From Eukaryota sp. GEM-RC1 (taxonomy: Eukaryota): a stretch of DNA of 64,000 nucleotides. The translations under genes were made by a program, and so were the position numbers. Positions 34,803 to 64,000 of this stretch are shown here, piece by piece. Location of the stretch: the NCBI GenBank assembly GCA_040285855.1, contig JAUFOQ010000005.1, forward strand, positions 682,001-746,000, written 5' to 3'. The notes below the pieces were generated by a model that was given only the letters and a program-made list of their open reading frames with translations, was not told the origin of the DNA and did no database searches. Positions within the stretch are counted from its first letter, which is position 1. Each line of letters begins with the position of its first letter.

Positions 34803-34816
34803 AAGACAATAATTAT

Positions 34817-38607: not shown

Positions 38608-38684
38608 TGTTAGTGTAATGACTCATCAGGACCTTTATCCTTAAATAAATTCACTTTTCTCTATTCATATGACTAAGACCAACA
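38608..38684 (+). repeat. 5' LTR of element 2 (77 bp)
   Basis: TGTTAGTG...GACCAACA, followed by ATAATTATTGT. Confidence 0.92.
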
Positions 38685-41030
38685 ATAATTATTGTGGCCT
38701 CTGCAAAGAGTTGCAATGTATGTGTACTCCGGAGAACTTCACTCCTGGAAACCAAACTAACCCAAACCCTAGTTCCGTTCTAGGTGAAGATTCCAGTTCC
38801 GCCCTGGCTTCTTCCAAGTCTTCCACCGTGAAGGAACTTGGCCCAGATGGACTCCCCTTGGGATGACACTGTGGACTATGACATTGTTTCGGATGAAGAA
38901 CCTTCTTCTAATGGAACTTCGAATGAGAAACCATTCTCTATCGAAAACTCAAATGAGGATCCATCCCCCAATACAACTATAAACGAGGAACCTTCCTCCA
39001 ATATTGTCGAAAATGAGGAACCATCCTCTAATATTGATGAAAATGAGGAACCATCCTCCAAAGTTAATGAAAACGAGGAACCATCCTCCAATAGAACACC
39101 TGCTTCTAAGTCAAATCCACCAGTTGGATGGACCTATCGACCTTCGGTAACTCCTCCGCCTATCCCAATAGTACAGAGATCTACACCTCCTATTAGGACA
39201 CCGGAACCCTTTATTCCGAAATTACCCCCTACACCGTTAGGTTTCGTAATGCCGTCTAAAGATCCACGAGCACCTCCACCTCTACACGCTGAGAGTCCCT
39301 GGAGAGAGCTATGGAATGCCGATGTGAAGATGTTTGGGTCTATTGATAAAGATCAATGGATTCACTTTCAAAGACAATCAAGAAACAATTCTGAGTCTTA
39401 CGGTTTTGTAGAGACAGACCAGTATCTACTTAAACCAGCCAGAACACTAAAAAGATATTGGCAACGGATATATCCCCCTCGACCCTGAGGTTTCGTACAT
39501 CCATGACTGTAACGACAGATTGATGGGCTTTATAATGGATAAAACTCGTCCAAACTCCCTCGTTACTGTGGAACAAGCTTACAACCTCCTACGGAATCCA
39601 CTTCCTAAAGATCAAGTAGAGGCGATCGAAAAACAAGTAGACAACCTCGAAAGATACACCACGGTGAACAGCTTCTTCCATAGAAAACCAACGGTCAATA
39701 CCGACTCCGCGGATACAGTTCCTCCCTTGGTAGCCAACACTCCTTATGTGCCCGGCGGATTTGTTTTTGCAAGAAAGCCCCACGCACCGACCACCCCACT
39801 TCCCAACGAACTTCCACATGACCACATGCTGGAAGAGGACCACACTGCTACCAGAGTTGGAGCCCTATCGGTCTCACCTGAACCGGTTACTCCAACTCAA
39901 TCCAGCTCCAACAGTCCCAACACTGACGTAATCACACCGTACTCAGTACTGAAATTCGCTGAACGGTTACCCACTGACTCCTCCAGTGATTTGAACAAGT
40001 TGATGAAACCGAAATCACTTCACAATCTGGATGACGTTGACGTAATCATTAATTGGATTGCTGAGTACATGAGCTTCTGTACCGCCCAGAAGGACTATAC
40101 ACTACCAGCATCCTCACCACTCGGAGATCCCAAATACTTCTTTGACATTGGTAGGATTGCTGCCAAGGAAGCCGACACTCGTTGGGTCTCTCGACTTGTT
40201 GCGTATCCGGTTCAACAACAGATGAACTATCTAGGTACAGCAACGACTTCCAATGATGAACTCTTCCGACAGATCATCTTAAGAACCCAATTTAAGGACA
40301 TCTTGACCGCAAGAAATAAACTAAACGAAGTTCAGATGAACTGGTCGATCCAAGATTATGAACAAAGATGGCTCGACTTCATCAAACGATTTGATAAAGT
40401 GCTTAACCGAAGTACACTGATTAAATCCTCCTCGGAACCGTCCTACACGATGCTGGACGAAAGAACTATCATCAAAGCTCTTTTGACCAACATTGGTCTC
40501 GCCTCCCTCTACCTAGAACTCTGGCCCAAATGGAAAGACTCCAAGGATTTACACTCCTTCTTTCAACAGTCCTCGAACACTATTACCAATGGTGCAAGAA
40601 ATGGACAAACGGTCCCACACATGTTCAACTTGAACAAAAGAACGTGGAAATTCTCATGCACAGAGACAAGGATTCCTGGAACGACATCCCAAAAGCAATC
40701 CAACGCTCAGCATCCAAAATTTTCGCCCCAGGAAATTTGAAGTCTAAATCATCTTCAAAGAACCCTCACAATGCAGCCCCTCCTTTCAAAAAAGAAGCAT
40801 CGCTCAAACTCATCTGATAGACCTCCTAAGGATGATAACTGCTGTAGCTTTTGCGACTCCCCGGATCACAAGATAAACCTTTGCAATCATCCTGACTGTC
40901 GTAGAAGCGAGCTCCCCGCGGATCAACGTCTTCCACGATCTGAGGCAAAGAAACCTGCCACTCGTAGTCATAGTTCGCGTAAACAAAATAAACATAGTAA
41001 GTATTTCGTGCAATCGATAAACACTATTCA
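38669..41030 (+). CDS. gag: gag of element 2; frameshifted, start uncertain
   Basis: Knuckle CSFCDSPDHKINLC; LGDPKYFFDIGRIAAKEAD resembles element 1 gag LGKPKNRFDFARTALCEVD. Confidence 0.75.
38981..39094 (+). repeat. 30-bp in-frame tandem repeat (NEEPSS-xxx-E), about 4 copies plus degenerate upstream units
   Basis: AAA(C/T)GAGGAACC(T/A)TCCTC repeated every 30 nt. Confidence 0.85.
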
Positions 41031-44000
41031 CAATGATAACACATCATCGTCGGATTCACATAATCCATACATAAACCCACTCCACAACATCAGTAATTCG
41101 AGTGGTACGAACTCACTAAGCCTGAATTCAATATTCAGCATAATCGATCACCAGGATCCACCACCATTCCTCAGCTGCAGTCTGACCATCAATGGTGTTT
41201 CGATCCAGGGTCTTTGGGACAGTGGAGCATCAATGTCCGTAATCACACGAGACCTGGTCGATAGATGCTCAATGAAGTTCATTAACAAGAACGTACCATT
41301 CACATCTGCAAACAACGTCAGGTCTCACTCACTGGGTAGCGCCCAAGGGATCTTGACCTTCAAGTTCAGTAAGGTGACACACCTAACATCTGTGACGAAG
41401 ACTTTACCTATCATCCCTGGATCCAACAAATGTTTGTTAGGTATTGATCTCATGAAGCAGTTGGGTTTACTGACTGAAGAGGGACTAATCATCCCGGTTC
41501 AACAAACTATGATAGCTCAGAGTAACGACGAGTCTGAGTTCGACTCCAACATATCTATGCCCAATAGCCTTTCTGTTATAGACAATATAGATTTCAATAA
41601 ATTTGTTTATGATTCCGGTTGTTCAATCACATTAGATGACGATGACAGAACCAATGAATTACTGAATCTACTCAATGAGTTCTCAGTCATTTTCGATTCC
41701 GTTCCCCACAAAGATGGCATCGATTGTCCACCGATGACAATTGACTTCTACGACGAAGAGTCCACGGTGAAACGAAAACCTCGGAGGCTTAATCCAGTCA
41801 AACAAAGGATAGCCAAAGAAACTTTTCATGAACTAGTACGTTTGGGATACGCTGAGTATACTACACCCAACGGAAAATTCAGCTCTTCGGTAGTACTTGT
41901 GGTCTACCCCGATCACCGTAAGCCTAGACTTACTGGTGACTTCAGTGGTACTGGAGGAGTCAACGAACTTACTAAACCGGTCCAACCGAATCTACCGAGA
42001 ATCGCAGACATACAGGAATTCCTGAGTGAAGCTGACTACATAGCCACTCTCGACCTGCCAAAAGCATTTTGGCAACTGAATCTGCGGATCACGAACGCGA
42101 CAAGACAACTCTAGTCATCCATGGCCTAGCCATTCGATTCAAACGAGCTTGTTTTGGTTTGAAGAACGTACCAGCAATCTTTCAAAACTTAATGATGGAT
42201 ATTTTCGACCACGAAGGAATATTCATCTACATCGATGACATCATCATAGTCGCCAAAACTTTTGATGAATACTTATCTAGAATAAAATTCGTTCTTGAGA
42301 GAGCCCAACTCTATAGAGTCAACCTTGGCTTACACAAGTGCAAGTTCATAACAAAGAATCATCCCATAACTATCTTAGGTTGCGAATACATCGACAACAC
42401 TCGTCGAATCGATTCAAAACGCGTAGAAGCTCTAGTAAACATACCAACACCGACCACCATCAAAGAAATTCGAAGTTTCGTCGGTTCTATCAACTACATT
42501 AAAGATTTCATAGCAGATGCATCGGACCTACTAGCTCCCATAATAGCCCTAGTAAAGAACAAAGCACGAACAGTTCATTGGACACCTCAACTTCAATCAA
42601 ATTTTGATGAAATCAAAAGAGGATAATCAATCACATGCCACTATGTCTACCAGACAAAGACAGACGCATACTGATCAGCGCAGACGCTAGGGATATCGCC
42701 GTAGGTGGTGTCGTCTGGCTAGAATGCACCCCTCATTCACCTGAGGGAACTCCACTGAACGACCGCAAAGTAGAACCACTTGCATTCTACAGCAAACTAC
42801 TCACTGACTCTCAACAGAACTGGGCCACAATTCAAAAGGAATTGTACGCCATTCTCCTGATATTAACAGAATCTCAACTGTCGTCGTACCTTATCAGCAG
42901 GGAACTAACGATCTTCACTGATCATAAGAACCTCGCTTACTTAATCTCAGCACCTGAGAAGAACAGGATGGTCAAACGATGGATCCCTATTCTCAGCGAA
43001 TACCTATTCACCATAGTCCACACCAGTGGCGAAGACAACCATTGGGCTGACATGATGTCACGCAATGTTATCCAAGACGCAACAACTGAGTCTATAAACA
43101 ACATAGTCACATATTGCCCAGAGCATTTGTTCTCTATAACCGATAGCCGATGTCCTACTGATGAGGATACGGATTATCAAACTTTATCAACAGAGTCAAT
43201 CGACATGATTGACGATGCCCTGATCAACAAATTGAAGTTATTCGACGCTTGGCTTTCGAAAGTACGCTCTACACAAGTAGAAGCCATCAAAAATAACGAT
43301 ACATTGTTCCAACATCCGTCTACTTGGTTTAATGAAGAGTTCCAGCTATACATGAATAGCAACAACAAGATCTTGATACCAAGTGCCTTGGTGAAAACCA
43401 CCCTGAACCACTTACACGGTTTTCCACATGTAGGTCACCATAGCATTAAAGATAGCATTGATCGGCTAAAATCTAGTGACTACTTCTGGCCCAGCATGAT
43501 CAACGACATGAAAACTCACTGCAAGCAATGTCCAGCTTGTCAAAAGACAGCTCCCCCTTGCCAAAACAACTATCAAATCTTCAGGTAATTTGTGGTCCGA
43601 CAAACCATTTGCAAAGATGAACGTCGAAACTATAGGACCACTTCCCACTGACACATCGGGAAACATTTACTTACTAGTGTTCATAGATTCCTTCACCAGA
43701 TTCACAATCCTATGTCCACTAAAGGAACTGAATGCTCATGAGACAGCATATTCGTTAGTGTGTAACGTTTGCGCCATCTTCGGCATTCCAGATCTCATTC
43801 ACAGTGATAATGGCAAAGAATTTGCTAATCACGTTTTCAATGACGTCTGCAAGCAATTTGACATCACAACTAATAAATCTATACCTAGTTTCTCTCCTAG
43901 CAACGGTTAAGTTGAACGTCGACACAGAGACATTCTACAAGCTTTACGAAAGATGCTCATAGACTTCAATGACTATGACAACTGGAGTAAATACATCCCA

Positions 44001-44787
44001 CTAGTACAACTGCTGGTAAACACTACGAAGAGTAGAGTAACCGGCTTTACACCGTACGAACAGATGTTTGGATCTAACACCAACCCTGATAGTGATCCAA
44101 GCAAAATCATCTCTTGCCTCACTCAGAACAAGATTTCAGAAGATTCCTTTCTAGCTGATTACCAATCAAAATTAACAAGAATTTTGGAAAAAACGGGAAG
44201 AAGCAGAAACCACCCAATCATCTATCAAATCTTCCATTACTACAGTCGATACACCCTCGCTATTCGCTATCGGTGACTTAGTACTACGAAGTAACAAAGC
44301 AGCTAAGAAGCTTCATGGCAAACAAGAGGGACCGTACCTCGTAATTGATATACCTTCCAAAAGCTCACTTGAACTGCAGAACTTTGTCACCGGACATCGC
44401 TTCCGCTCCAGCATTCATCTATGCACCAAGTACCTTTCCGACAAACCCTCCTCTGATGAGTTCCACAAAGCAGTAGCATCTTGTGACTCTGAAGAGATGG
44501 TCATCATCGAGATCCTTGATCAACGTGATTCACCTACAGGTCCCATATGTTCCGTCGTATGGTTTGACGGCGATACTACTGAGGAAACTCTAAGTCTGGT
44601 TAAGAACACTAAGGCTTACTCAAGTTTTATTAAACTAAATCCTCACGCCAAACCCAAATCTAAACCCAATACTAAATCTAGAAGTACGCGTAATAGAAAA
44701 GCGATCCCTAGTAACACTCCTAATTCTGTCATTCACACTACTCCACCTGCCAAGAGGACTAGGTCCTCGAGAAAGGAGAAGAAGTAA
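41031..44787 (+). CDS. pol: pol of element 2 (protease, RT, RNase H, integrase, chromodomain-like); frameshifts and stops
   Basis: WDSGASMSVI, LDLPKAFWQ, YIDDI, ADARDIAVGG, TDHKNL, CPAC, SDNGKEF, EILD..VVWFDG. Confidence 0.92.
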
Positions 44788-44864
44788 TGTTAGTGTAATG
44801 ACTCATCAGGACCTTTATCCCTAAATAAATTCACTTTTCTCTATTCATATGACTAAGACCAACA
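44788..44864 (+). repeat. 3' LTR of element 2 (77 bp)
   Basis: One mismatch to the 5' LTR; followed by TSD TATG. Confidence 0.92.
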
Positions 44865-47800
44865 TATGACATAGACAAAAATCTTGATGAACAGTACTCA
44901 AGAAAGAACGAGGAATGTTGAATGCCTTGCCAATGTTGGCAGCATTGTCTGTCGTCACAGTCAGCACTTTTTCTGCAATTCCGAATTCTTGTAATACTTT
45001 AGTTACAACAGCATTTACTTGATCACCAGTATGAGGATGTTCGAAAAGATCTACATTCAGCACTATGGAATGGAATTGGAAATCTTCTATAAAATGGCAG
45101 GTGATTCCAAGGAATGGAAGTCGTTGCCTTGAGGACCAAAGATCAAGAGTAAGATTGATTGCATTTGGTTTTTTAAGGAGAGAGATTATGTGGGATTTCT
45201 GATGTGTGTAGTTTTGAATGATACGGCTTCTTACAGTTTTTCGACACGGTTGTGCAATCTTAGGTGATATGAAAGTCAAAAGAGCTCGCAAGATACTGGA
45301 CTCGGCAAAAGTGAAAGGCAAGTGATCATGAGTAACGAAATCCTCAATAAGTGAGACAACATAATTTATCTGCCCTGGGGAAAGTTCTAAGTTCAAAGAA
45401 GGTGGAACAGCAATAGGTGCATTACTGTCCAAAGCGACCTGTTTTTTGTTATCAGAGGAAAAGAGGCTATGGTCATTTTTCAGGTGCTTCTTCAGAACGT
45501 TGTCTGATGTCCTCAAAGAGAACGTTGTAGAGCAACCTTGAAAAGAGCATTCTCGTCTCTGACACTCGATCCCATCATCAACGAGGGTGACTACCGTAAA
45601 ATAAGACTTGACGGTACGGTTGGTCATGAGAGTTAAAAGATGAAGTTATATGTTTATATTCACTATTTAGAAAGTAACTATCTCCAGAAAGTAACTCTCC
45701 AGTGCGAATATAAATGTAACTTAAAACACAATAGGTGCAGTTCAGCTCTATCGTCATTACTGCTTTCTGAAGTATCACTGATTTGAAAAAGCGAGTATGA
45801 GTATTACTCGAGTAATACTCAGGATTTATTACTCATTACTCTACTTGAGTAATGACTAAGTATTACTCGAGTAGAGTAATTTCCCGCCTCTAATCAGAGA
45901 CTTCAATCTTTCTTGAATAACTATATTTCAATTAATTCAGTAAGAATTATGAGTAATCAGAATCAAGAAATTTCAAATTTGAGGAGTGGAATGGTTAAAA
46001 CTCAGGACTTCTTCCAGAAACAACTCCAAATTCATACCGATTATATCAATAATCACTTAGACATGGAATCTGATTGAATTCATTACATGCACCAAATTGA
46101 AAAGGAAAATTCAAAACTCAAAAGTGAATGGAGTGAAGCACGGACAAACTTTCAGAAACTACTCAAAGCTGAAACTCAATCTCTTAAAGAACAATTTAAC
46201 AATATGATCACTGCACAGACGTATCTCGATCAACGGTTAACTGCAGTTTTAGATTATCTCAAAAACCAATCAGTTAACATCAAGCAATCGTTTGTGGATC
46301 AAATCAAGTCAGAACGGTACTATCAAAGCCAACAGTTAGCAAAAGTTGAGAAAACACTTCATCATCAACTTTTGTCTGAAAGTGACCATCATAATGGACG
46401 GCTATCGCGTTTTACTAAAGAACTTCACAATGTGCAGGAACGAATTTACTGTAGAGAAGATGTTGTCACCCAAAAGTTTGCTAAAGTAGAAGAAACACTT
46501 AAGAATCACATCAAGTCTGAACAAGATAGATTTGATCGACGCATAGTTACTGTCAAACAATCACTTCAAGCTAAACTTGAGTCTGAAAGGGATTATCAAA
46601 ATGAGCGGTTAACTCCACTTACGATGGAAATACAAACACTACAGAATGACACCAGCGTTAGACAAAAAATTGTCAACGAAAATTTTGTTAAAATGCAAGA
46701 ATCAATTCAGAATTTCATTAAGTCTGAGCAAGATGATTATGATCGACACGTAGTTGCTGTTAATCAATTAATACATAGTGAAATTGAGTCTGAAAGGGAT
46801 TATCAAAGTCAACAATTAGCTAATGTTGAAAAATAAATTCAGGCTCAATTGTTGTCCCAAAGAGAACACCAAAATGAGCGATTAGCGCCACTTACGAATG
46901 AAATTCAATTACTGAAAACGAAAATCAGCTCCGGACACAGTACTACCAACAAACAGCTTACTGAAGTTCGTCAATCGATTGATCTAAAAGAACAGCAGAG
47001 ACTTTCCATCAAGAATCAACTTCAGTCACTTCAAAATCAAATCACAGTTCTTAAAGCACATGTTGATCAGGAATATTTGGTAAGTGAAGATCAAATTGGT
47101 TTGTTTGATGCTGCTATTTGTGGATCTAATTTGTTCCTCTCCAGTGATTTTGTGTTGGTTCAAGCAAAATTCGGTGACCAATTTTATTGTAATAATTTTG
47201 TGGCAATTCCACTTCTTGATCATTTTAAAGTTAAACTGACTCTTGTCAGTGGTGATGGACAAGCTTTTCTTGGATTTGTTACCAGCAAAAGTCCGCAAAG
47301 CCGTGTTCTGGAAATGTGGATTGCGACCGATGGATCACGTAGATCTGAAACACTGTTTTCCCCGTCAAAACCAAACTTTCCGCCATTACCAAAGGGTGTT
47401 ATATTATAATTGAGTTTGCAAACGGTAAAGCGATATTCACACCCTCAACCTCACAAATGGCCTTTTCAACTCCAATATTACCAGGCTGTGTTTTTGGTTT
47501 GAAAACATACACTGCTGAACAAACATGGCGACTCCAACGTGTTTGATTTACATTGTTTTTTCTGCCAATAAATGTTCTTGATGTTTGACAGTAACTCACT
47601 GTGATTATGTCCATTAATTCTATACGAACTCATGTACACCAATTTTGGCCAGAGGACCACTACCTGCTGAACAGATGCTAGCTTTATAATGAACATATCG
47701 AGAATCTCCTAAAGACGGTTCATTTACTGCCAAAAGAATGGACGATGAAGGACAGTTGGCCACATTGCTGACTCAGATCGATATGTATGTTGTACTGGTT

Positions 47801-48366
47801 GTGTGGAAGAAGATGAAATGAATTTGATTGGAATGTTGACGTCATCATGCCCTTAAGTAAAAGAAATTCTTCAAAGCAGTTACAACTAATGAAAGAATGT
47901 TGCCTCCACGGTTTGGTACCAGCTTGGTACGCTAACCACTAAAAGCAACGAAGACTCCTTCTGATTGACTGTATCGTGTCATATATATCTATGTCACACC
48001 AAGTTAACCTGATACATATACTCTTTGAACAATTGTAAGACCTCACGGTCTATCTTCTACGTCAAGATAACACGTTTTGTCTCTTGTTTGTTGTCTCTCT
48101 TGTGAAACACCCACATCTTTACCAATAGCGTTTCTATAGTATCTTGTCTTTCCTTCGTCTTAACTACGAAGACATACAGTTATCATAAATCGGTTCTTAC
48201 ACAATACACTGGTTATCCCCTAAGTCATCCACAACAAACATGAAAGTCCATTGTTTCCAGTTAACGTTTAAAACAAACAACACCAATAGGCATCTTCCAT
48301 CTGAAGACTAAACCCCAATAAGTCACATCCTGAAGAAATCCGTTTATTTACTCTACTAGAACGTCA

Positions 48367-50422
48367 ATGTCTCAACTTGATCATCATTTATGTCCAACAA
48401 ACCTTCCCATCTCCATTCTTGATTCAACTGAAGCCTTTGAATTGCTCTCCGATCGAGAAAAGTTGTTTGCTTTCCATTTCTCTCAAGCAGTATGGAGTGG
48501 TCTCGACATCATCATTGCACAAGTCAGTGAAGAATCCCCCGCTATCCTCTCCCTCTTAACGCTTCTCTTCTCAAATTACTCTCTATCTGAACTCAATGAT
48601 AAAGCCCAGTCTCTTCAGCTCCCCTCCGATCTTGTTACTTTCGTTGCTGAATACTTCGTCGTTTGCTCTGAGAACAAGGGTAACTATCTAGGCTTTGGGG
48701 ATGCTAAAATCATCCCCCGATTCAGTTCTTCTGACTTCTCTGCACTAATCGCTGCTCTTCCTCTTTCATACCAGCTTGCTCCTCTGTTCAACAGCGTTAG
48801 TGATGCAATGTTTAGTCTATCTGAGCAAGATTCACATCTTTCTCTTAGTAAATCCGCTTACTATCAAGGTACGTTTACTCTAGAAGAAGTCAAGGAAATT
48901 CAACAGGAATTATCAAGACTGAGTATTCTTCCTCACAATACTAGAGTTTTCAAGTCTCCTTCTGGTCAAGTTGACGTGTTAGTTAGCAGTGTTGGAAAGA
49001 AAGGAAGAGCAAAAGGAGAAGTTTCGACTCATTTATGGGGATTTTTCCACTCCATTATCCAAGGTTGTTAAAAATCTCGAAAAGGCAAGGGAATACGTGA
49101 GCAATGACAATCAATCACAAATGATTGACCATTACATCAAACATTTTCGAACAGGATCAGTTGAAGAATTTAAAAATTCAATGAAATTTTGGGTTTCAGA
49201 TAAGGGTCCAGTCGTTGAAACTACAATTGGTTTTATTGAAAGTTACAGAGATGTTGTTTTAGGGGAACGATGTGAGTTCGAAGGCTACGTGGCTGTTGTC
49301 AATCAAAAGGAATCCAAAATTTTGAAATCATTTGTAGAAAACGTTCCAACTCAAATTTTTCCCCTTTACCCTGGTCAATGGAGTTCGAAGCAAATGAATT
49401 TCAAAGTCCAGACTTTAACTCCCTTGATGTTATTTGCTTTAATACCACTGGTCTTCCAGCTGGAATTAATCTTCCAAATTTCAATGATATTAAGGAGAAT
49501 TACGGATTTAAAAATGTTTCTTTGAGTAACGTTCTTTCAGCCCCTGAACCTCGTCAAAAAATGTTTTTTATTAGTGATTCTGATCAAGAGTTGCTGTTTG
49601 AGTTTAAGTCTACAGCATTCAAAGTTCAAGTTGCTGTTCACGAGCAAGGTCATGGAACTGGTAAATTATGGATGAAAAATAACGATGAAACGTTCAATTT
49701 TGATCGTTCGGTCAAAAATCCAGTTACTGGAGGAGATTGTGGATTTTATGATGTGGGACAAAGTTATGATTCTGTTATTGGAAAGTTCTCGTCACCAATG
49801 GAGGTATGGTTTCTTAACTTTTAAAATATTAACCACAGGAATGCAGAGCTGAATGTATTGCGCTTTATCTATCCACATTCGACAATGTTTTAGAAATGTT
49901 TCAAATTCCTTCTGAAAACTTGAACAAGGTCAGAAATGCAATGTTTTTGAACCTATGTCGTGGTGCTGTCCTAGGATTAGAACATTTCAATATGAGTACA
50001 CTTTCTTTTCACAGAGCCATATTTATGCTAGATGGGTCATATTATCTACTTTAATGAAAGCTGGAATTGCATCTATTTCAAAAAGTCAAAATGAAGAAGG
50101 TTTTGAGCTTTCTCTTGATTTCTCACGACTTTGTTCTGATGGCCGGAAGGTCATTGGTGAATTGTTGCTGTCAATTCATGTTGCACGTTGCACTGCTGAT
50201 AGAGAAGCAGGCGTCGAAATCATGACGTCTCACCTTCCTAATCCGGAGGAAATCAACGAATTACGGAACAAGGTTATTGAATTTAAAAGACCTAGACCTT
50301 TCTTTGTTCAGCCCAAATTGTTGATGAATGAATTAAAAAATGTTGAATTGGTTAATTTTGAAGCTAATCTAGAAGGTTACATCAAGAGTATTGTTGCAAA
50401 GTCCGGCTTTGTTATTTTGTAA
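48367..50422 (+). CDS. DPP3: Dipeptidyl peptidase III (M49); one intron, about three homopolymer frameshifts
   Basis: NKGNYLGFGDAKIIPR, WVSDKGPVVETTIGFIESYRD, PAGINLPN, GFKNVSLSNV, HEQGHGTGKL, E|ECRAE. Confidence 0.93.
49804..49838 (+). other. 35-nt spliceosomal intron in DPP3
   Basis: GTATGG...CACAG; removal restores MEECRAE. Confidence 0.9.
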
Positions 50423-51324: not shown

Positions 51325-52518
51325 TAGATCTATGATTCCCTTGCAGCCGGCTGAGCCCCGGTCTCTATTAAGCCGAGCTGAGCCCAGGCCGACGCCGGCC
51401 TATCTTTTTTTCTATGAGCCGTAATCTAGGCCCAACTAATTTACAACTTGCTAAATCTATTACTATGATCACAGAAATATAAGACTAATTGTTGTATAGG
51501 GACAATTCTCGTGTTGATGTGGAGAATTTAACTTCTTTCATTTTCTGAATTAGTATGTAATAATTTATTGTTGCAAATAAACTCTTTATAATTGTATTTA
51601 AATAAAGTAATTTAGAAATTCACTACAATACAACTTCATCGTTCTCGTTCTGAATTGATGTAGAAAAACTTAACTGTGTTTGTTTTAAGACTTTCTTTTC
51701 GATCTTATTCTCCCGCGGTTTAATAGAGACTTTAGTCCAATGAGAGACCTAATTGTTTCACGATCCAAATTCCATCTTCCATGAATCATGTGGCCAACCA
51801 CAGAAAATAAAGACTCACAAGCAACAGAAGAAGCAGGACTTGCAAGGAACTGTCTTGCAACTCGGCTCAAATTCGGATACTTTTCGTTATTGCACTTCCA
51901 CCACAAGAGTGGATCTGAAGCTGAAACTCTTTCATCAAGATATCTATCAAGCTCACTCTTGTTTTGGTCCACGATCTCACACTCTTCTTCTCTAACAGCG
52001 AGTGATATTTCTGCAAAATTGTCATCTTCTGAATCTGATGCTGCTTGATCGCCTGTCGACGGTACTTCTGCAGCTGGTGTGGAATTTTCCGATGTATCAA
52101 TCATACTAATCAACTGCTCCCAGTGCTCTTCTTTGTCTAAGACTGCAAACTCTCTAAGCATATTGTTTTTGTAGCGAGGATCAAGCAAAACTGCAGCAAA
52201 GGCAACATAGTCGGTAAAGTATTTCTGAGACTTAATCAATCTATCGAACATCAATTTAGCAGTCGTTTTGATCCAAATATCTTCAGAATTGTTGTAAATA
52301 TCTTTGAACGTATTTAGCAAAGAATCAAACAAAACGAATCCACTGCAAAACTTCTTCTTGTTTGTTATTTTAAAAATCAAAATAAAAGCACCAACAAATG
52401 TTACAATTTATTATTGGACTTTCGGCGTTAAATTTGGCCTAGCACGGCTTAGGCCGGCCTAAAAAGTTTTTGAAATCTGTAAGAAGGCTTAGGCCGGGCC
52501 GTAAGGGTATCATATCTA
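51325..52518 (-). mobile_element. Internally deleted hAT element retaining the transposase C-terminus (ORF 51685-52380)
   Basis: LLDPRYK, ELDRYL, DPLLWWK, YPNLSRVARQFLASPASSVACESLFS; imperfect TIRs with GGCC-rich subterminal repeats; no clear TSD. Confidence 0.8.
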
Positions 52519-52703: not shown

Positions 52704-55005
52704 ATGTCTGAGCCTACTTGTAACATCCATACTCTTAGGACAACGCTTCTCCGTGACAGACTTCTCCAATGTCAACAAGAAGAACTCTTAACAGATAGTG
52801 TCATTGTCTTTCATGGTGAACGTTTCTCTTGTCATTTTTCTTATCTTGCTTCTTTCAGTAAAATCTTACAGACCAAGTTCAAAACTTCATCCACTAAAGT
52901 TGTCTTTCCCGAACTTGAAGCTTCTGTTTCTGATGCTAATCTCTTCTTTCAAGTATTCCAATACTTCTATGGACATCCTTTGCATCTCACCGTTCAAAAC
53001 GTGGGCATTGTTCTTTCTCTATGTTCTTCTCTTCAACTTGAGTTGTTATCTCAATCTATTCATGAGACAATGAAAACAGGATTGGATTTATCAAAACCTT
53101 TCCAACTACAGTTAGATTCGAATGAAATTGTGACCATAATGAGTTCAAATCTCCAAAGAGATGTCGTTCTAACTTATTTAGATGAAGAAGAAGTCGTCAT
53201 TAGTTCAATATGTTTAATTTGTTGTTCAAACACATTTAAACATCAATTCTGCTCTAACTTTGCTGATCATTCCCTTCGAAAGTTCTCTTATCATGACGAG
53301 TTTGTTGGAGTTACTGGTGAAGAATTTCAATCTTTCTTTGGTTCTTTTACTGGTAAATCAATCATTCTTAACTCAGACAATTTCGTGAGTTTTTATCAAC
53401 TTGCAGTCTATTTTCAAGTAGAAGAGGTAAAGAAGGAATGTATTGGGTTTTTAACTAGAGTAAGTGATGAATCTGAATTGATACAGATTCTTTCAACGGC
53501 TGCTGTAAGGCATTTGTTTAATTTTCTTTTAGATTTCAGTGGAATTTTAAAAAGCTGGCTTCTCCAATCAATTTCCAACCGATTTCATTGCCTCCAAACT
53601 TCTTTTTGCCTAATGTTGATAATTGTTGGTTAATTAAATGTTTAGTACTTACTGTTCAGAATACTCCAGAAGATCAGTTGGATACCTCTGAAATACTACG
53701 AATTTTAAATTTGTTTGAGGTAGATCCATCAAACATTAGTAAAGTGTATCTTGCTGCAAAAACTTTATTTCAATTAAAGTTGCTTCAAAATATACTTTTT
53801 GATTGGTCTATGATTGTTTTACCAACAATTTCTCCTGACAAAATACCTGGTAAATGGTTCTGCTGGTGTTTTGTCTTATTTATTCGAAGTTTTCACAGAC
53901 TGTCAAGGTACTTCAATTTTTTTTCATCAAACTTTGGTACAATTGTTACTGTTATTCGTCTATCCGCAATTGTGTTAATTCCTGAAGTTTTCCAAAGTTT
54001 AGCATCAAGTCTACCTTCGGATTACACACTATTCCTACTAAAATCACTAATTTTTTCCTGGAAGTCTTCTGAAGTCTCTAATTTTTGGTCTGTTGAAGAC
54101 TTTGTCAGTTGTCTGTCAGCTTTAAATATTGACTCAAATCCAATTGAATTTTTAAATCTAATAACCCCTTTATGTATTGATCAGAGACTTCAATCTTTCT
54201 TGAACAACTTTATTTCAATTAATTCAGTGAGAATTATGAGTAATCAAAATCAAGAAATTTTAAATTTAAAGGGTGAATTGATAAAAACAAGGAGCTACTT
54301 TAAGGAACAACTTTTGGCTTATAGGGATTATCACAAAAACAATTGGCCAATGTTGAACAATCATCTCAAAGTAAGATCAATGCTGAACGAAGTGATATTC
54401 TTTGCCAATTTGCCATTAGCCAGAACGAAATTAAGTCTGCACAAGATTATCATAGTGATCAACTGATGTCTTTTCAGAGTCAAATCAAGACTCTTAGTGA
54501 CAAAGTTAACCACAAGTACCAAGAGAGAGAAGTAGGTAAGTTTGATGGAGGAATTTGTGGATCCAATTTATTTCTTTCTGGTAATGAAACGGTGGTTTCC
54601 TCTTCAATGGATACTGTACATGTAGCTCATATAGAATGTAACAATTTTGTAGCAATTCCTTTAATTGATGGCTGCAAGATTAAATTGACTCTTCTTCGTG
54701 GTAATGGGTCTGCCCACCTTGTTTTTGCTAATAGCAAAAAGCCACAAAGTAGCAGTTATCTGATGTGGTTAGACACTAGTGGTACACGTAGGTATGGCAC
54801 CTTTTCTCCTCCAGAACCAGGTTTTCCTCCAATCACGGGAGGGTGTCACTTCACCATTGAATTATTTAAAGGACGGGCGATAATATGTACCCCTTCAACA
54901 TCAAACTCTCCGTTTTCAACTCCAGTTCCTGAAGGTTTTGATTTTGGATTGAGAATACATTGCATAGGTCAGAAATGGAAGTTGGAACGGGTATGTTGGT
55001 TATAA
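52704..55005 (+). CDS. BTB protein, copy 3 (BTB-BTB-helical, coiled coil, SPRY-like); frameshifted
   Basis: ORFs 52704-53633, 53588-54466, 54343-55005. Confidence 0.85.
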
Positions 55006-56527
55006 TATATATTTTGTTCTTTTTTCGATTGTTTTTAGTTTGATAAAATCAATACCGTCATCTTGAAGATAATTTCTATCCTTATTGATTTTTAACCGTT
55101 GATTGCTCGCCTTTGGTTGCAAAATGTACAATGGATAAGAGTAGATGTAGTCCTATCCCTCTCAGTATTAACGACCGATGTTTAGTTATCATAACACCAA
55201 GTAATTTGCTTTCAAAATTGTAAATCAAACTGATTAGGGGCTTTTGTCGTTGCATCAACAAAAGGTGATGGTGCACTCTTGTGGAAGCCTTCATCTATGT
55301 TTGTCTCTTTAACACTGTATTCGAAACTAAGCTCTAGTTTCGATCCATTTCTCCGGACAACCAGACAATTACTAAATTTACAGTTATTTGTTGAGATTGA
55401 CGTCTTGTTTTTGACAAGGAAATCAGTGTCGTATATTTTGTTAAGTATCAAAAGTGCCTTCGGGTATTTGAAGATGAAATTAGATATTCTGGAAGTTGCA
55501 GGTAAGTGAACCATTATATTTTTGAGCAACAAACAAATGTTGATTGACTGATACTTATAACTGTTCAAGAAATCATCTATAAATGGAGCGTGTTTAACAA
55601 TTATTTTTCCAAGTCTGTCCGATTTCTAGACTACGGAGCTGGTAATTGTTCCTAAGATTTCTGAATATTTTACTTGTTCATTAGGCAAAATTAGTGCAGT
55701 GTTTCTTCATATGTTTATTTGAGAATATATCACGGTTTGTAATTTCAAAAATGGTTTTTCTTTATATTACTCCTCTATTGAAATGTATTTAGATGTATTA
55801 AGGATTGATTAGTGCGAGCGTGATAGAGATTGAAGTGGTTAAGAAGTCATTTGTCACTTCTGCTCATTCAAGTGTACTGCTGTTGGTTTCACCACGTTGT
55901 CAATTGTGGTCCATGGAAATTATACAATACTGTAGAACAAACTTAAGTTTCAGAAATGCAGAACAATTTTTTTTCAACATATCGAGACAATCAATAAGCC
56001 GATATTTCTATTAACCAAAATTTCTTTTACACAATAATTAAATTTGTTCTTGTTGTGTGTTTTTCTCCGCACATAAATCCGCGTCTCATAATTAAATAGT
56101 GATGTATTTGATTATCAAATACTTCACTTTATTAACAATGGAGAACGAACAATACATGTAGCAGAAAACAGAAGAAGAAATACATATACTATCTGACAGT
56201 GATGACCAAGATTGCCATACATACGTGTTCTGTTTGGTCACATGGGCCGTATCATTACTTGCAGATCTCAAATGGCAAATGTTTGATACTGTCACTGGCA
56301 CTTTGAGCCTACATCTCCTATGAAAGAAGTCTTGCTGTTTCGGTGTGGATTTTGTGGTACACGGTTTGATTAGCACAAGTGACGTGATTTTAGTTTTCTT
56401 GAAAAATACTGTATATCATATTCAACCAATGTGATCTGTTACGATTTCTTAAGTATCACAATAACAATGGCTGTGATGTATCGTTATAATGTTAATGGTT
56501 TCATAGCAATTGTACAAGGTCAGAAAT

Positions 56528-56607
56528 TGTGGTCTTAGTCATATGATTAGAGAAATGTGAGTTTATTACATTAATAGGTCCTGATGAGTCATGTCATGAC
56601 ACTTACA
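56528..56607 (-). repeat. Solo LTR-like copy related to the element 2 LTR
   Basis: Minus strand TGTAAGTGTC..ATGACTCATCAGGACCT..TTTCTCTAATCATATGACTAAGACCACA; no TSD seen. Confidence 0.8.
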
Positions 56608-56660
56608 CGAGTTGCAACATTTTTACTGCAAAGTACAAAAGGAACATTGTACACAAATCA

Positions 56661-59058
56661 ATGTGTAGCACAAATCAAATGTCAACCTCCACCATTGATA
56701 CATGTAGTAGTTTAGAGGCTGTATCCCAAGCATCTCCCTCGGTGGAAGCTTTTTTCTTTGATCCAACTCTTCTCCAAGACAGACTTCTTCAATGTCAACA
56801 GGAAGATCTACTAACAGATAGTGTCATTGTCTTTCATTCTGAACGTTTCTCTTGTCATTCTTCTTATCTTGCTTCTTTCAGTAAAGTGTTACGGACTAAA
56901 TTCAATACTTCATCCACTGATGTTGTCTTTCCCGAACTTGAAGCTTCTGTTTCTGATGCTAATCTTTTCTTCCAAGTGTTCCGATACTTCTATGGACATC
57001 CTATGCATCTCACCGTTCAAAACGTTGGTCATGTCCTTTCTCTCTGTTCTTCTCTTCAACTTGAGTTGTTATCTCAATCGATTCTTGAGAAAATGACCAA
57101 ATGGACGGATCGGTCAAAACCTTTGCAATTACAGCTAGATTCTAATGAAATTGTCACTAGAATGAGTTCAAATTTCCAAAGAGATGTCGTTCTAACTTAT
57201 TTAGATGAAGAAGTTGTCATCAGTTCAATTTTTCTAATTTGTTGCTCAACATCATTTAAATATCAATTCTGCTCTAACTTTGATGATCATTCCCTTCGAA
57301 AGTTCTCTTATCATGACGAATTTATTGGAGTTACTGGTGAGGAATTCCAATCTTTTTTGATTCTTTTACTGGCAAGTCAATCACTCTTAACTCAGACAAT
57401 GTCGTGAGTTTTTATCAACTTGCAGTCTATTTTCAAGTAGAAGAGTTAAAGAAGGAATGTATTGGGTTTTTAACCGGAGTAAGTGATGATTCTGAATTAA
57501 TACATATTCTTTCAATAGCTGCTGTAAGGCATCTGTTTAATTTTCTTTTAGATTTCAGTGGAATTTTAAAACAGCTGGCTTCTCCAATCAATTTCCAACC
57601 GATTTTGTTGCCTCCAAACTTCTTTTCATGTCTTTTACCTAATGTCGATAATTGTTGGTTAATTAAATGTTTAGTACTTACTGTTCAGAATAGTGAAGAA
57701 GAACAGTTGGATACTTCTGAAATACTTCAAATTTTAAATTTGTTTGAGGTAGATCCATCAAACATTAGTAAACTGTATCTTGCTGCAAATCCGTTATTTC
57801 GATTAAACTTACTTGAAAATGTACTTTTGATTGGTCCATGACTATTTTCCCAACCATTTCTTTTGACAAAATACCTTGTGAATGGTTTTGTTGGTGTTTT
57901 AATTATCTTATTCGAACTTTCCAACAAGTTTCAAGTTTCTTGGATTTCTTTACTTCAAATTTTAGTACAATTGTTACTGTTAAATCTTTGCAAACTACCC
58001 CGTCAATTGTGTTAATTCCTGAAGTTTTCCAAAGTTTATCCTCAAATCTACCTTCAGAATACACAATATTCCTACTAAAATCACTAATTTTTTCCTGGAA
58101 GTCTTCTGAAGTCTCCAGCTTTTGGTCTGTTGAAGACTTTGTCAGTTGTCTCTCTGCTTTAAATATTGACTCAAATCCAATTGAATTTTTAAATCCAATT
58201 ACCCCTTTATGTATTGATCAGAGACTTCAATCTTTCTTAAACAACTATATTTCAATTAATTCAGTAAGAGTTATGAGTAATCAAAATCAAGAAATTTTAA
58301 ATTTGAAGAATGAGCTGGATCTAACAAGGAGCTACTTTACAAAGCAACTTATGGCGGAGAGGGATCATCATGCCCAACAATTAACCAATGTTGAACAATC
58401 TTTTCAGACTACCTTCAATGCTGAACGCAATGATCTTCTTTGCTTGTTCGCCAGACACAAGAGCGAAATAGGTTCGGAACTGACCTTTCATCATTTTGAA
58501 CTGAGATCTGACCGAGAGAAACTCCAGCAGTCTTTTCAACACCAAATTGGAGCTCTCAGTGATAAAATAGAGTATAACTACCAAGTATATGGGAGAGACA
58601 TTGGTCATTTTGATGACAGTCTTTGTGGATCCAATTTATACCTATTTAATAATGCCAGTGTGGTCAAATCTTCGTCTCTTAAAAAAATAACAAATCTAGA
58701 CTCGAATAATTTTGTTGCCATACCTTTACTAGAGGGATGTGAAGTCAAGTTGACTCTTGTTAGTTTAAGTGGATCTGCCAGTCTTGTTTATGTTGATAAC
58801 AAGAGGCCTCAAACAAGGTTTTTAACTATGAATGTACCTACGAGTGGTGTACAGGCACGTGGAAGATTTTCCCCTTCAGAGCCCAGTTTTCCTCCAATTA
58901 CTCAAGGCCATGGATTCAACATTCGATATCAATACGGTCAGGTTATAATTAGTCCTTCAACTAGCCGAGCTTCCTTTTCAGCTCCAGTATTGAAAGCTTC
59001 TGTATTTGGATTGAAAATACATGAATCAGGTCAAACATGGAATTTGGAGCGGGTGTGA
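56661..59058 (+). CDS. BTB protein, copy 4 (BTB-BTB-helical, coiled coil, SPRY-like); frameshifted
   Basis: ORFs 56661-57407, 57404-57841, 57838-59058. Confidence 0.85.
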
Positions 59059-60263
59059 TTACTTAAAAGTGTATGTTCTATTGTTTGAGTGGTACTTATA
59101 GAAATTAGAAAATGATTCATTGGATATTTATTGGGAATAGCAGTTTTAAGGCTGCTTATTAAAATTGAAATGTTTGAACTGATACAATACTTACTGTTCA
59201 TGATGACATTATTTTGATTATTTTCATGCAGAAACAACAATCGTGTTAGAATTGTAGAAAAAGACTTAGTTGACAGCACTCCACTTTTCCCAATAATAAA
59301 TTGCAATAAATTTATATCGTGTCTCACATCAGTATTTACAATCCTAGGGTACAATGATCGTTCTGATATACGAACTTTTCAAATTTAAATGAGCTTTAGA
59401 GATCTGTGCTTTATTATCTGATGAAAGTAGGCCAGCCTTGGTATACTTAGAAGTAAAATCCATGGATGTCCATGATTTCGTGACATCATGACAATATTAC
59501 GTCATCACAATCTGTAATGACGTCATGACAAATTAGCAAATTATGTCAAGACAAACGCAACACCGTTAAATCGTTTAACAAGTTAGTATTTCAACTCTTT
59601 TGAAATAAAATGAATAGTCACAGCAGATAATCAAACACAGAGGAGTGAATAGCCAATTGTTTTGAAATATGACTGTAGTAAGCATCTGTAGATTGTTAAA
59701 ACTCCGTCTTTTTTCCAACTATGTTGTAACCATTAAATGACTGTCAAGAAACAATTACGTCACGATAATGGGGTTGTTGGTGTCATGGACAGTTGTAAAA
59801 TTAAATCTAAGGATTCAGTTTAAAACATTTGATTCTGAATGTTTTTTACTCATTTGATGTTGAGAAGTGAACCAAGTTAGTCATCGATTACATTTGTTTC
59901 TTCTGTAAAATTGTTCATCCTATGAAGTTACTGGTCATATATTTTCTATATGTTTTTAAATGGGGGTTTATTTCACGACTTCATTAATTTAGGATCAAAA
60001 CAATTGTACTGCTCTTGTGTGCAATGAATGTGCATCGCTTTTTTATCAGACATGCCGTCAAAATTTCGCATCAACTTAGTCCAAAAGCGCACATTCCCTT
60101 TTCTGGTGGTTTCCGCTCCCTCACGATTTCAGAATTTAGGGAAATGCAACTTTTAAAAGTAGAGTAGAGTCTCTTAGTCAGTGAACTGGCGCATGGAATT
60201 CAGAGTGAATGCAAATGTTGAAGTCAAATATCCTGTCCGGTACATCCTCTGAAGACAAATCTA

Positions 60264-61141
60264 CAGTAAACTCTCTCTAATTGAAACGACTTGGTGAATG
60301 TAGTTTCGTTTCAATTACAGAGAGTTTTCAATTACAGAGAGTTCCTATAAATCTACCCATTACTAAATACAACATCCACATATATTACAGAACATCAAAT
60401 ATTTTATTAATTAGTCTGCAAGAGCAACTTAACAAGTCTGATCCACAAAACAAGTACAATGAATGCTCGGACTTAAACAAATGTTATTAGCTTGACTCAA
60501 ATGAATCATCCCGCTTTTTAAAAAAGACTTTTACTTAATATCGACAGTACTCATTATAAAGTGGTACACAGGAAGTATTTCGTTTATATTTCGTAAGGGT
60601 GGCAAAAAATGAACCAATGTTTCTCCCTCTTTTCCCCAGCACTGCTGGAAGATCTATCATCACTTGATTTAGAGCAGTGCAGTCATTAAACTAATGTATT
60701 GGAACACAATTGGAGAAAATTCTCAATCAATGATTCAGTTCTTTTTTTGAGGAAAGGTTCTACAGTTACAGTTTCTGTATTTTCATCATCTTCAAAACAT
60801 TGACGAGCATGCTTCTGTATTTGACTTTTAATTGATGTTCAGTATTGTGTGTGGTATATTTAAGTTGATGATGGGAAAACCAGAAGAGTACTGTAGGATT
60901 TATGAAGAACAACAACGTCTTTTTTCCTTCTCCACACTGACATCGATATATGGCAGCGAGCTATAGATGCGCCACCCAGAAAACAGCGTAACAATGACTT
61001 CAATGTTTCAATTAGGTCTCAAAAAACTGTTTCAATTGTTTCAATTTTCAATTTGGTATTGTTTTACTCGGTGGCATGGCTTTTTGTTGCAATTTCAGAG
61101 AGTTTTCAATTACAGAGGTTGCAATTAGAAAGAGTTTACTG
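60264..61141. mobile_element. pogo/Tigger-type MITE
   Basis: TIR CAGTAAACTCT(C/T)TCTAATTG(A/C)AAC, flanked by TA on both sides. Confidence 0.85.
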
Positions 61142-61151
61142 TACCATCAAA

Positions 61152-63309
61152 ATGTCTCTCACAGCCACTAATAGTCTAGTGAACCCATCCCAAGCCTCTC
61201 GGTTGGAAGAAGCATTTCTTTTGATTCAACTCTTCTTCAAGACAGACTTCTTCAATGCCAAGAGGAGGAACTATTAACAGATAGTGTCATTGTCTTTCAT
61301 GGTGAACGTTTCTCGTGTCATTCTTATTATCTTGCTTCTTTCAGTCCATTCTTACGGACTAAATTCAGTACTTCATCCACTGAAGTTGTCTTTACCGAAC
61401 TTGAAGCTTCTGTTTCTGATGCCAATCTCTTCTTCCAGTTATTCCAATACTTCTATGGACATCCTTTGCAACTCACCGTTCAAAACGTGGACCGTGTCCT
61501 TTCTCTATGTTCCTCTCTTCAACTTGAGTTGTTATCTCAATCTATTCATGAGAAAATGAAAACAGGATTGGATTTATCAAAACCTTTCCAACTACAGCTA
61601 GATTCTAATGAAATTGTCACTAGAATGAGTTCAAATTTCCAAAGAGACATCGTTCTAATTTATTTAGACGAAGAAGTTGTCATTAGTTCAATTTGTTTAA
61701 TTTGTTGTTCAAAAATTTTTAAAGATCAATTCTGCTCTAACTTTGCTGATCATTCCCTTCGAAAGTTCTCTTATCATGACGAGTTTATTGGAGTTACTGG
61801 TGATGAATTCCAATCTTTCTTTGATTCTTTTACTGGTAAAGCAATCATTCTTAACTCAGACAATGTCGTTAGTTTTCATCAACTTGCAGTCTATTTTCAA
61901 GTAGAAGAGTTAAAGAAGGAATGTATTGGGTTTTTAACCGGAGTAACTGATGATTCTGAATTGATTCAGGTTCTTTCAATAGCTGTAGAACGACATGTAT
62001 TCAATTTTCTTCTGGACATCAGTGAAATTTTAAAAAGCTGATTTCTCCAATCAATTTCGAGCCGATTGCTTTGCCTCCAAACTTCTTTTCATGTCTTTTG
62101 CCAGTTATAGATAATTGTTGGTTAATTAGATGTTTAGTGCTTACTGTTCGTAACACTGAAGAAGACGAGTTGAGTAATTCAGAAATTGTCCAGATTTTAA
62201 ATTTGTTTGAGATAGATCCATCAAACGTTGGTAATATATATCTTTCTGTAAGACTTCTATTTCAGTTAAAGTTACTTGAAAATGTACTTTTGACTGGTCC
62301 ATGACTATTTTCCCAACCATTTCTTCTGATAAAATACCTTGTGAATGGTTTTATTGGTGTTTTAATTATTTTATTAGAAATTTCCAAAAAGTTTCAAGTT
62401 TCTCGAATTTCTTTACTTCAAACTTTAGTACAATTGTTACTGTTAATTTTTTGCAATCTTTCCCTTCACTTTTATTAATTCCTGAAGTTTTCCAAAGTTT
62501 ATCATCAAATCTACCTTCGGAGTACACACTATTCCTACTAAAATCACTAATTTTTTCCTGGAAGTCTTCTGAAGTCTCTAGTTCTTGGTCTGTTGAAGAC
62601 TTTGTCAGTTGTCTCTCAGCTTTAAATATTGACTCAAATCCAATTGAATTTTTAAATCTAATTACCCCTTTATGTATTGATCAGAGACTTCAATCTTTCT
62701 TAAACAACTATATTTCACATAATTCAGTGAGAGTTATGAGTAATCAAAGTCAAGAAATTTTAAATTTAAAAGGCGAATTGGTGAAAACAAAGTTCTGTTT
62801 CGAAAAACAAATAAAGACTCAAAGGAGTTTGCAAATAAAAAAAGCAAGAAATAGGTAAGTTCGATGGAACAGTTTGCGGTTCCAATTTGTTTCTTTCTGA
62901 TAATGCAACTTCGATCTCTTCTTCATTTGAAAATGAGTTGACTGGTTTAGAACGTAATAAGTTTGTGGCAATTCCTCTAATCAATGGTTATAAGGTTAAA
63001 CTGACTCCTGTTAGTTGTAATGGATCCGCTAGTCTTGTTTTTGTGGATAGCAGAAAGCCTCAAAGTAGATATGTTTCAATGTTTATACACACTAATGGTA
63101 AACTTACTCATGGAACCTTTTCTCCCCATGAGCCAAGATTTCCTCTTATCACGGGTGGGTGTCACGTCACCATTGAATTTTCCGAAGGACGCGCGATCTT
63201 TACCCCATCAACATCAAACACTCCGTTTTCAACTTCAGTTCCTAAAGGGTGTGTCTTTGGATTGCAAATACATTGGTCAGGTCAGAAATGGAAGTTGGAA
63301 CGTGTTTGA
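61152..63309 (+). CDS. BTB protein, copy 5 (BTB-BTB-helical, short coil, SPRY-like); frameshifted
   Basis: ORFs 61466-62041, 62071-62304, 62301-62858, 62887-63309; ATG at 61152. Confidence 0.82.
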
Positions 63310-64000
63310 TTGTCTTAATGTGAATTGCGTGCGAATGTTTCTAGCTCAATCAATCAATACCATCGTCTGTAGAGAAACGACATTGATCTTCATTGATCTT
63401 ACACCATTGATTACTTTTATGGTAATGCCTTGTTGTATAACCTGAAATGATATCAGTGGTATTATGACAATTGTGTTGCAGATTTTATGTGTAAAGTATA
63501 ATTCCGTGATCATATTCTAGATTAGAGTTGTCAAATGATTTACCTCAAGCCGTGTTCTGAGAATGACTTGATAAAAGTACATACAGTATTAAGAAGCAAT
63601 TATATAAGATGATCGAGTACATATCGTAAAACTATTTAAATCTAACTAAAGACTGTTAAAAAAACTATCTATCTACTAACTCCCCATTTCAACAAGTAGG
63701 TATTATCGAACAGCCTGGCCAAAATCAATGGTCTTACAGCTGAAAAGTCAAAAAGCAAACGTACTCGTCCAGTACTACATGTTGAACATCTTACTCACGT
63801 CTGAACGTAAATAACAAAGTCTTGGTTTTTACTGCCGTTTCACATCGTTGTATACTTATGTTATCATACATATGTTTTAAGACATGGCCTTTGCTGATGT
63901 GGGTTTCCTATACTACTCTGAAGTAGTCACTTACTCGTAAAAGTATGCAGAAATAAGTATACGTTTCACCATCATTAATACCAACAGAAACCAAAAATTG

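Follow-up and report, generated by a model that had tools for sequence, protein, structure and literature searches.

In zebrafish, the NLR-B30.2 family comprises nearly 400 genes in which a NACHT-LRR core is joined to a B30.2 domain with a ratio of nonsynonymous to synonymous substitution (dN/dS, or omega) of about 1.4-1.7; gene conversion is described as differing between core and tip, with different cores found next to similar tips and near-identical cores next to different ones (PMC4852459). In finTRIMs, likewise, the N-termini are reported to be near-identical and the B30.2 domains to be under selection (PMC2657112), while the tripartite motif, with the B-box as its defining domain, has been reported from metazoans only (PMC2533329). 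Among protists, the Naegleria gruberi protein D2VKV5 is listed as holding BTB and SPRY (recognized by Pfam PF00622) in one protein, together with an LYR motif (PMC4381221), and the adjacent BTB domains of RhoBTB are described as possibly forming an intramolecular dimer and as binding CUL3 (PMC1257465). Here we present a gene array with two BTB domains and a predicted C-terminal SPRY fold, located in a 64,000-nucleotide (nt) stretch of DNA (the window) from Eukaryota sp. GEM-RC1, which corresponds to Skoliomonas sp. GEMRC, a free-living metamonad (PMC11316075). The family is real, and its more interesting feature is the modular recombination that its sequences point to, as opposed to positive selection on the tips, which is unsupported.

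The gene array and the fold of its C-terminal domain

According to the listing of open reading frames (ORFs), self-BLAST and tblastn, the window holds five paralogues on the + strand (copies A to E) and four copies of a C-terminal domain of ~150 amino acids (aa). The earlier note on this DNA had placed five same-strand paralogues with a similar core within 52704-63309; five do exist, but that interval contains just C, D and E, A and B being located further upstream in the window:

~24352-25956, + strand: copy A, core of BTB-BTB-helical type that stops ~25 aa past NQNQE, without SPRY; frame open upstream to 23683
35860-37358, + strand: copy B, 5' half, BTB-BTB-helical, with one nonsense codon near 37230
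45901-47546, + strand: copy B, 3' half, coiled coil of ~376 aa enlarged by repeats, with stops at 46075 and 46834; SPRY at 47098-47543
52704-55005, + strand: copy C, BTB1-BTB2-3-box/helical-coiled coil (~93 aa)-SPRY; ~767 aa when read through two homopolymer breaks (53552, 54338)
54535-54993, + strand: SPRY of copy C, homologue of the modelled E domain (63-64% identity)
56661-59058, + strand: copy D, layout as in C, coiled coil of ~103 aa; ~799 aa across two breaks (57355, 57824)
58603-59055, + strand: SPRY of copy D
61152-63309, + strand: copy E, layout as in C with a short linker of ~33 aa; ~719 aa across four breaks (61219, 62035, 62287, ~62843)
62854-63306, + strand: SPRY of copy E, the domain used for modelling

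The cores of B-E share 80-97% protein identity and begin to diverge past NQ(N/S)QE, and the sharp divergence that had been noticed after this motif is also seen in codon alignments. Pfam recognized BTB/POZ (PF00651) in all five N-terminal ORFs (43.7-78.2 bits against a cut-off of 20.5), with two BTB stretches in four of them, while the ORF of A is interrupted by a frame break within BTB2. The linker that follows measures 33 aa in E, 93 in C, 103 in D and 376 in B, and shows the hydrophobic periodicity of a heptad (3.4-3.7 residues) with p=0.002 in three of the four segments tested and p=0.026 in the fourth, the linker of E being outside the test. The proposed BTB-BTB-coiled-coil layout is therefore well founded. 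Homodimer prediction with the coiled coil and SPRY of D gave scores of 0.29 and 0.31, where the mark was set at 0.32. In B, the coiled coil was expanded via internal repeats (46222-47027, + strand; 163-nt copies 207 nt apart and a 27-nt unit present five times), which suggests internal repeats as a route to the differing spacer lengths. Upstream of copy A (23120-24345, + strand) lie an in-frame beta-rich stretch of ~220 aa and, ahead of it across one more frame break, a Cys-rich ORF. This region gave no convincing Pfam match, and may represent an N-terminal fusion in the sole copy devoid of SPRY.

All four tips carry the motifs and loops listed for them in the earlier note, although the domain with the loop QAKFGDQFYC belongs to copy B, a disrupted copy. 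The AlphaFold2 model of the E domain, based on 22 aligned rows, reached a predicted local distance difference test score (pLDDT) of 92.6 and a predicted template modelling score (pTM) of 0.87; a model from four sequences alone (pLDDT 43.7) was not used for fold search. With the E model, the best Foldseek match was SPRY7 (E 7.4e-6), followed by TRIM PRYSPRY, ASH2L and RanBP9/10, and every listed row was an entry carrying a SPRY/B30.2 domain, a membership that we in part assume for untitled or complex entries. VIA, an independent structural aligner, returned only SPRY/B30.2/NHR entries at ranks 1-33, headed by TRIM67 (Z 13.3, root-mean-square deviation 3.1, 139 aligned), HERC1 (12.9), RanBP9 (12.8) and SPSB3 (12.7), which tie within 1 Z. 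Lectin-like folds reached at best Z 9.3, below the top SPRY rows, and galectin, the best PDB match by sequence (E 0.65-0.7), was ruled out on that ground. In addition, an independent Atlas model of the relative P0019 showed TM scores of 0.77-0.79 to SPSB3 clusters and a feature similarity of 0.95 to PF00622 clusters. Pfam SPRY/PRY profiles matched none of the window or relative sequences scanned, and sequence identity to SPRY entries in the VIA structural alignments was only 8-14%. By its modelled fold the C-terminal domain is nevertheless SPRY/B30.2, as had been guessed by eye, and it is no closer to TRIMs than to other SPRY proteins. Viral matches of the fold were generic SPRY and gave no indication of transfer.

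A profile of the four window domains, run against 1.84 billion representatives, gave 18 matches, of which 14 were kept (two of them the window's own) and P0012, P0013, P0014 and P0018 were discarded as short repeat matches; two further searches for relatives gave 5 and 11 matches. The domain is thus carried by at least 18 proteins outside the window in addition to the four domains within it. All 16 named relatives are hypothetical proteins of Eukaryota sp. GEM-RC1; no further species turned up in the searches, which is weak evidence given the high divergence. A metagenome scan with the E domain produced 75 pattern matches and zero relatives, and an Atlas search with the D domain weak leads only. 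Five relatives are intact BTB-to-SPRY gene models of 565-777 aa, three of them double-BTB (P0006, P0019 and P0021; 749-777 aa) and two single-BTB (P0020 and P0024), while many others are fragments. In P0022 (911 aa), BTB-BTB-SPRY is followed by a MIF4G piece, which may reflect either a true fusion or the merging of gene models.

Divergence of core and tip

In regard to the way in which the tips diverged, silent sites are informative. Synonymous divergence (dS) between copies was 0.23-0.29 in the core (0.04 for B and C), compared to 0.48-1.78 in SPRY, and at four-fold sites SPRY was 2.6-18 times more diverged than the core in all six pairs (Fisher p<=0.003). Since the tips diverged so sharply, and equally at silent sites, conversion or module exchange probably explains them better than positive selection does. 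Copies B and C have the following tract in common:

52950-54052, + strand: conversion tract in copy C, common to copy B (about 36114-37223), with 2 substitutions in 1122 aligned columns

The coordinates of this tract are approximate, as they were converted by hand from alignment columns 195-1316. Divergence rises to 5-8% on either side of it (permutation p=0.0005), and despite this near-identical 1.1 kb the SPRY domains of B and C are only 52% identical. A shorter tract joins D to B and C. The opposite combination was found among the relatives, where the double-BTB protein P0019 and the single-BTB proteins P0020 and P0024 share 24-26% identity in the core, as opposed to 68-74% in SPRY (24% and 74% for P0019 and P0024). 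Likewise, single-BTB proteins are distant from all double-BTB proteins in the BTB tree, whereas in the SPRY tree they are mixed with a double-BTB group from outside the window. Near-identical cores with differing tips, taken together with distant cores with similar tips, indicate that core and tip likely evolve as separate modules, via conversion or swapping. The simplest reading of these sequences would be that conversion homogenises neighbouring cores, while the SPRY cassettes, being of greater age, have switched partners. Localised A-specific hypermutation of the type known from diversity-generating retroelements was considered and rejected, as the window holds no second SPRY DNA copy to serve as a template and the silent changes in SPRY are of all types.

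Divergence of the SPRY loops could alternatively result from an arms race, in which pathogen targets impose positive selection, and the earlier note had indeed expected diversifying selection with site-wise dN/dS above 1 in the loops. In codon alignments with X placed at frame breaks, dN/dS ranged over 0.35-0.57 for the 10 core pairs and 0.27-0.59 for the six SPRY pairs. Purpose-written site models on four sequences assigned 62% of SPRY sites to omega 0.09 and 38% to omega ~1, and none to a class above 1; the relaxed 38% could be taken in favour of an arms race, but the comparisons of M1a with M2a (2dL, twice the difference in log-likelihood, 0.0), M8a with M8 (0.0) and M7 with M8 (p=0.28) gave no sign of it. 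In data simulated on the same tree, omega 5 at 15% of sites was recovered in 13 of 14 runs, omega 2 at 38% of sites in 12 of 14 and omega 3 at 15% in only 6 of 14. Strong sustained positive selection on SPRY is therefore unlikely, although moderate or episodic selection may have acted, and episodic selection would be averaged away across the four long branches. The predicted excess in the loops was not borne out, and the picture of a fixed frame with variable loops holds only in part: the motifs and loops exist, but strand positions and synonymous sites vary as well.

A separate clade of 12 members, in which the C-terminal third is almost fixed and a few segments are hypervariable, is in line with what an arms race would produce, and such selection has been reported for B30.2 families of fish (PMC2657112; PMC4852459). 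Members of this clade are 51-77% identical, and its column entropies and those of the window clade are correlated (rho 0.40, p 5e-7, n=147). Taken together with silent sites as diverged as replacement sites, the tests make an arms race an unlikely explanation, and conversion or exchange of modules remains the preferred one.

Frame breaks, mobile elements and the state of the copies

Another reading is that the array consists mostly of decaying pseudogenes, spread by duplication among transposons. There is something to be said for this, given that frame breaks occur in every copy (15 in total, 13 of them at homopolymer runs of at least 4), many relatives are fragmentary, A is without SPRY and B is disrupted by a transposon. 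Copy B, with three in-frame nonsense codons and an 8.5-kb nested transposon insertion, is for these reasons a true pseudogene. In C, D and E, however, all eight breaks (2, 2 and 4) fall at homopolymer runs of at least 4, and ~6.9 kb of their sequence hold zero nonsense codons. The control genes CK1, DPP3 and CEP76 show five similar breaks in ~5 kb (1, 3 and 1), ~1 per kb, which is the same rate as in C-E, and dN/dS in the array is well below 1. The assembly of this species is a nanopore one with short-read correction, and fragmented BUSCOs are reported at 9.6% in the gene predictions versus 3.0% in the transcriptome of the same species (PMC11316075). Homopolymer run-length counts gave no sharp cut-off and were uninformative. 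For 56600-63400 a look-up of sequencing runs came back empty, which carries no weight as to expression. Because of their homopolymer sites and the like breaks in neighbouring CK1 and DPP3, sequencing error is the probable source of the breaks in C, D and E, and these three copies are, judging from their sequence, probably intact genes. A mostly dead array is thus quite improbable.

Breaks common to several copies could also be real, with programmed -1 ribosomal frameshifting allowing them to be read through. An identical T-TTA-AAA-A site, which resembles a slippery heptamer, is where the frames of B, C and E break, and a second break is common to A, D and E. Copies in which the run at the T-TTA-AAA-A site is shorter or interrupted nevertheless remain in frame, breaks go either way (CK1 has gained a base) and occur at unrelated homopolymers, and systematic miscalls of homopolymers would yield the same sharing, so that frameshifting appears very improbable indeed, and sequencing error is the explanation that we retain.

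Mobile DNA lies close to each of the five paralogues. The following elements were annotated:

37359-45892, - strand: hAT-type DNA transposon within copy B, with the 8-bp target duplication ATCAGAGA (37351-37358, 45893-45900) and imperfect terminal inverted repeats
44845-45645 and 38062-38622, - strand: transposase pieces of this hAT insertion, with weak Pfam support
38608-44864, + strand: long terminal repeat (LTR) retrotransposon nested inside the hAT element, with 77-bp LTRs 99% identical, a 4-bp duplication TATG and protease/RNase H/integrase ORFs
27343-34904, - strand: second LTR retrotransposon, with 88-bp terminal repeats 99% alike, gag knuckle, reverse transcriptase and integrase, and an inserted stretch resembling 9750-10625

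The hAT label of the insertion in B derives from the 8-bp duplication, a hallmark of hAT elements, and from likeness to a hAT ORF at 51685-52407. The transposase remnant at 51685-52407 (- strand) ends ~300 bp ahead of C, another is situated at 2056-3698 (+ strand), and an LTR-like fragment (56526-56592) lies directly upstream of D. Concerning the remaining genes of the window, CK1 (21235-22500, - strand; E 1e-82 to solved CK1) has its extra base in a C run within the kinase domain, DPP3 (48334-50422, + strand) has three frame breaks, and a CEP76-like gene (18967-20618, + strand) is divided by one. CK1 and DPP3 contain very short GT-AG introns (~33, 29 and 35 nt, by eye), and their single-base breaks resemble assembly errors. 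Two ORFs (8221-9153 and 12829-13536, + strand) gave weak NYN-domain matches under the Pfam cut-off.

A predicted receptor family and its known counterparts

The best PDB matches of the family profile were KBTBD4 (E 2e-11), KBTBD2 and KLHL3, and in KBTBD4 and KLHL3 the match continues beyond BTB into the 3-box region. At the position of L-K-E in KBTBD4, a phi-x-D motif (F/Y/L-x-D) is present in all 12 BTB2-type rows printed, compared to none of nine BTB1 rows, where the loop is shorter; the pattern missed the relatives P0016 and P0023. From the profile matches, this motif and the precedent of RhoBTB, BTB2 is likely a putative CUL3 dock, and BTB1, by analogy, likely its partner fold; the features of BTB2 agree with the ubiquitin-ligase receptors that the earlier note had proposed. 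Pfam found neither RING nor B-box in the ORFs of the window or in the five intact relatives (P0006, P0019, P0020, P0021 and P0024). Lacking both, the array proteins are, as far as their sequence tells, not TRIMs; the TRIM-like label first given to them is apt for the layout, in which an N-terminal module is followed by a coiled coil and a SPRY tip, but not for the domains themselves.

The explanation that we favour, and consider fairly probable, is that the array encodes lineage-specific substrate receptors of CUL3, which share one chassis, have SPRY tips that can be exchanged and are subject to birth-and-death turnover among transposons. BTB2 and the two helices that follow it would dock on CUL3, while BTB1, which is without the docking loop, would pack on BTB2 intramolecularly. 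The spacer (33-376 aa) would place SPRY, whose variable face would bind targets that are then ubiquitinated. Conversion between neighbours would keep the ligase-binding core alike, and older, divergent SPRY cassettes would persist or switch partners, a pattern that is present in the data while its mechanism is our proposal. The outcome would be several specificities on one chassis. At the same time copies die by transposon insertion, as B did, and A has no tip.

Several points weigh against this explanation. None of the five copies has a single open frame in this assembly. The family motif is phi-x-D instead of the canonical phi-x-E, and no Pfam BACK domain was found in window ORFs or scanned relatives. 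The role as CUL3-type substrate receptors is a prediction from sequence. The variable segments would match the v1-v4 face of TRIM5, and a single surface face formed by the variable sites is proposed from their sequence positions. The rejection of one clade for the single-BTB SPRY domains (approximately unbiased test, p=0.044) is a marginal result, obtained with a quick tree of 16 of 19 domains, without P0005, P0015 and P0017. Finally, short-read polishing could inflate the likeness of the B-C tract, although not the contrast between core and SPRY in the other five pairs. In KLHL3, phi-x-E is described as the main CUL3 contact (PMC3616122).

It is also possible, though unlikely, that the proteins have no role in defence and are BTB scaffolds or adaptors for the cell's own proteins, with family growth by drift in a repeat-rich genome. 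The mechanism would overlap with that of the exchangeable receptors proposed above, and only the purpose would differ. Housekeeping SPRY proteins (RanBP9, HERC1, ASH2L, DDX1) are among the nearest folds, no class with omega above 1 was found and the window is dense with transposons; in grasses, the expanded MATH-BTB genes are described as forming tandem clusters that are rich in transposons and contain many pseudogenes, and the only member studied has a role in meiosis (PMC4091423). However, variability of the same SPRY segments in two separate clades with a fixed frame, as well as near-identical cores with very different tips, fit retained specificities better than drift.

An immune role of the exchangeable receptors is plausible. 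That their targets are foreign proteins of prey bacteria, viruses or transposons is a guess, which we put forward tentatively. The wider proposal is that an anaerobic, free-living metamonad arrived independently at a recombining repertoire for recognition, in which divergent SPRY cassettes are swapped on a CUL3-recruiting BTB chassis that gene conversion keeps uniform, and foreign (viral, bacterial-prey, transposon) proteins are thereby sent for destruction; it should be regarded as rather unlikely. If true, it would represent a single-celled counterpart of the NLR-B30.2 and finTRIM families of fish, without RING or B-box and unseen by Pfam. Recognition of intracellular invaders is poorly known in single-celled eukaryotes, and the array offers concrete candidates, namely soluble domains of 150 aa that have been modelled with confidence, whose variable positions are defined and which are predicted to reach an effector via CUL3. 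The homogenised cores and exchanged tips of vertebrate B30.2 families would here recur in a distant lineage, and, with SPRY domains that escape Pfam, counts of such families in the genomes of protists may be too low. Should the targets be proteins of the cell itself, the array would be one more lineage-specific expansion of ligase adaptors, which is a common thing.

In the accessible literature, mostly non-subscription, we found no account of the array family or of core-tip exchange in protist SPRY families. The main text of a BTB survey does not contain the term SPRY (PMC1257465), and in the genome description of the species BTB is absent from the main text, and cullin, BTB and SPRY from the text-searchable supplements (PMC11316075).

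Compared to known systems, the array proteins resemble the BTB-BACK receptors of CUL3 (KBTBD4, KBTBD2, KLHL3) in that BTB2 and the following helices align, in the acidic motif of the alpha3-beta4 loop and in having a C-terminal beta-rich binding domain. They differ in the tandem BTB, in phi-x-D for phi-x-E, in the absence of a Pfam BACK match, in the coiled-coil spacer and in SPRY instead of Kelch. With SPSB3, a cullin-ligase receptor, they share the SPRY fold as a target-binding module (Z 12.7; TM 0.77-0.79 for P0019). FBXO45 is another SPRY-bearing receptor of a cullin ligase, and receptors of the SPSB3/FBXO45 type are conserved low-copy genes. These work with SOCS box or F-box and CUL5 or CUL1, whereas the array would use BTB and CUL3 and forms a multi-copy, lineage-specific expansion. 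The two-way pattern of cores and tips described for zebrafish NLR-B30.2 genes is also present in the array family (PMC4852459), which however has a BTB core, ~20 SPRY-bearing members found, dN/dS below 1 and a protist host. As in TRIMs and finTRIMs, an N-terminal module and a coiled coil precede a SPRY tip that is more variable than the N-terminus, and the copies are clustered (PMC2657112; PMC2533329), but RING and B-box are absent and positive selection was undetected.

The pairing of BTB with SPRY in a protist has a precedent in D2VKV5, while the SPRY of the array is missed by PF00622, D2VKV5 was not among the matches of the relative searches, and its row in the source is silent on a family or its evolution (PMC4381221). 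Adjacent BTB domains, with a possible intramolecular dimer and CUL3 binding, are shared with RhoBTB and BTB-ankyrin proteins (PMC1257465), and tandem expansion close to transposons, accompanied by pseudogenes, with MATH-BTB families (PMC4091423); in all of these the BTB domains have partner domains different from those of the array.

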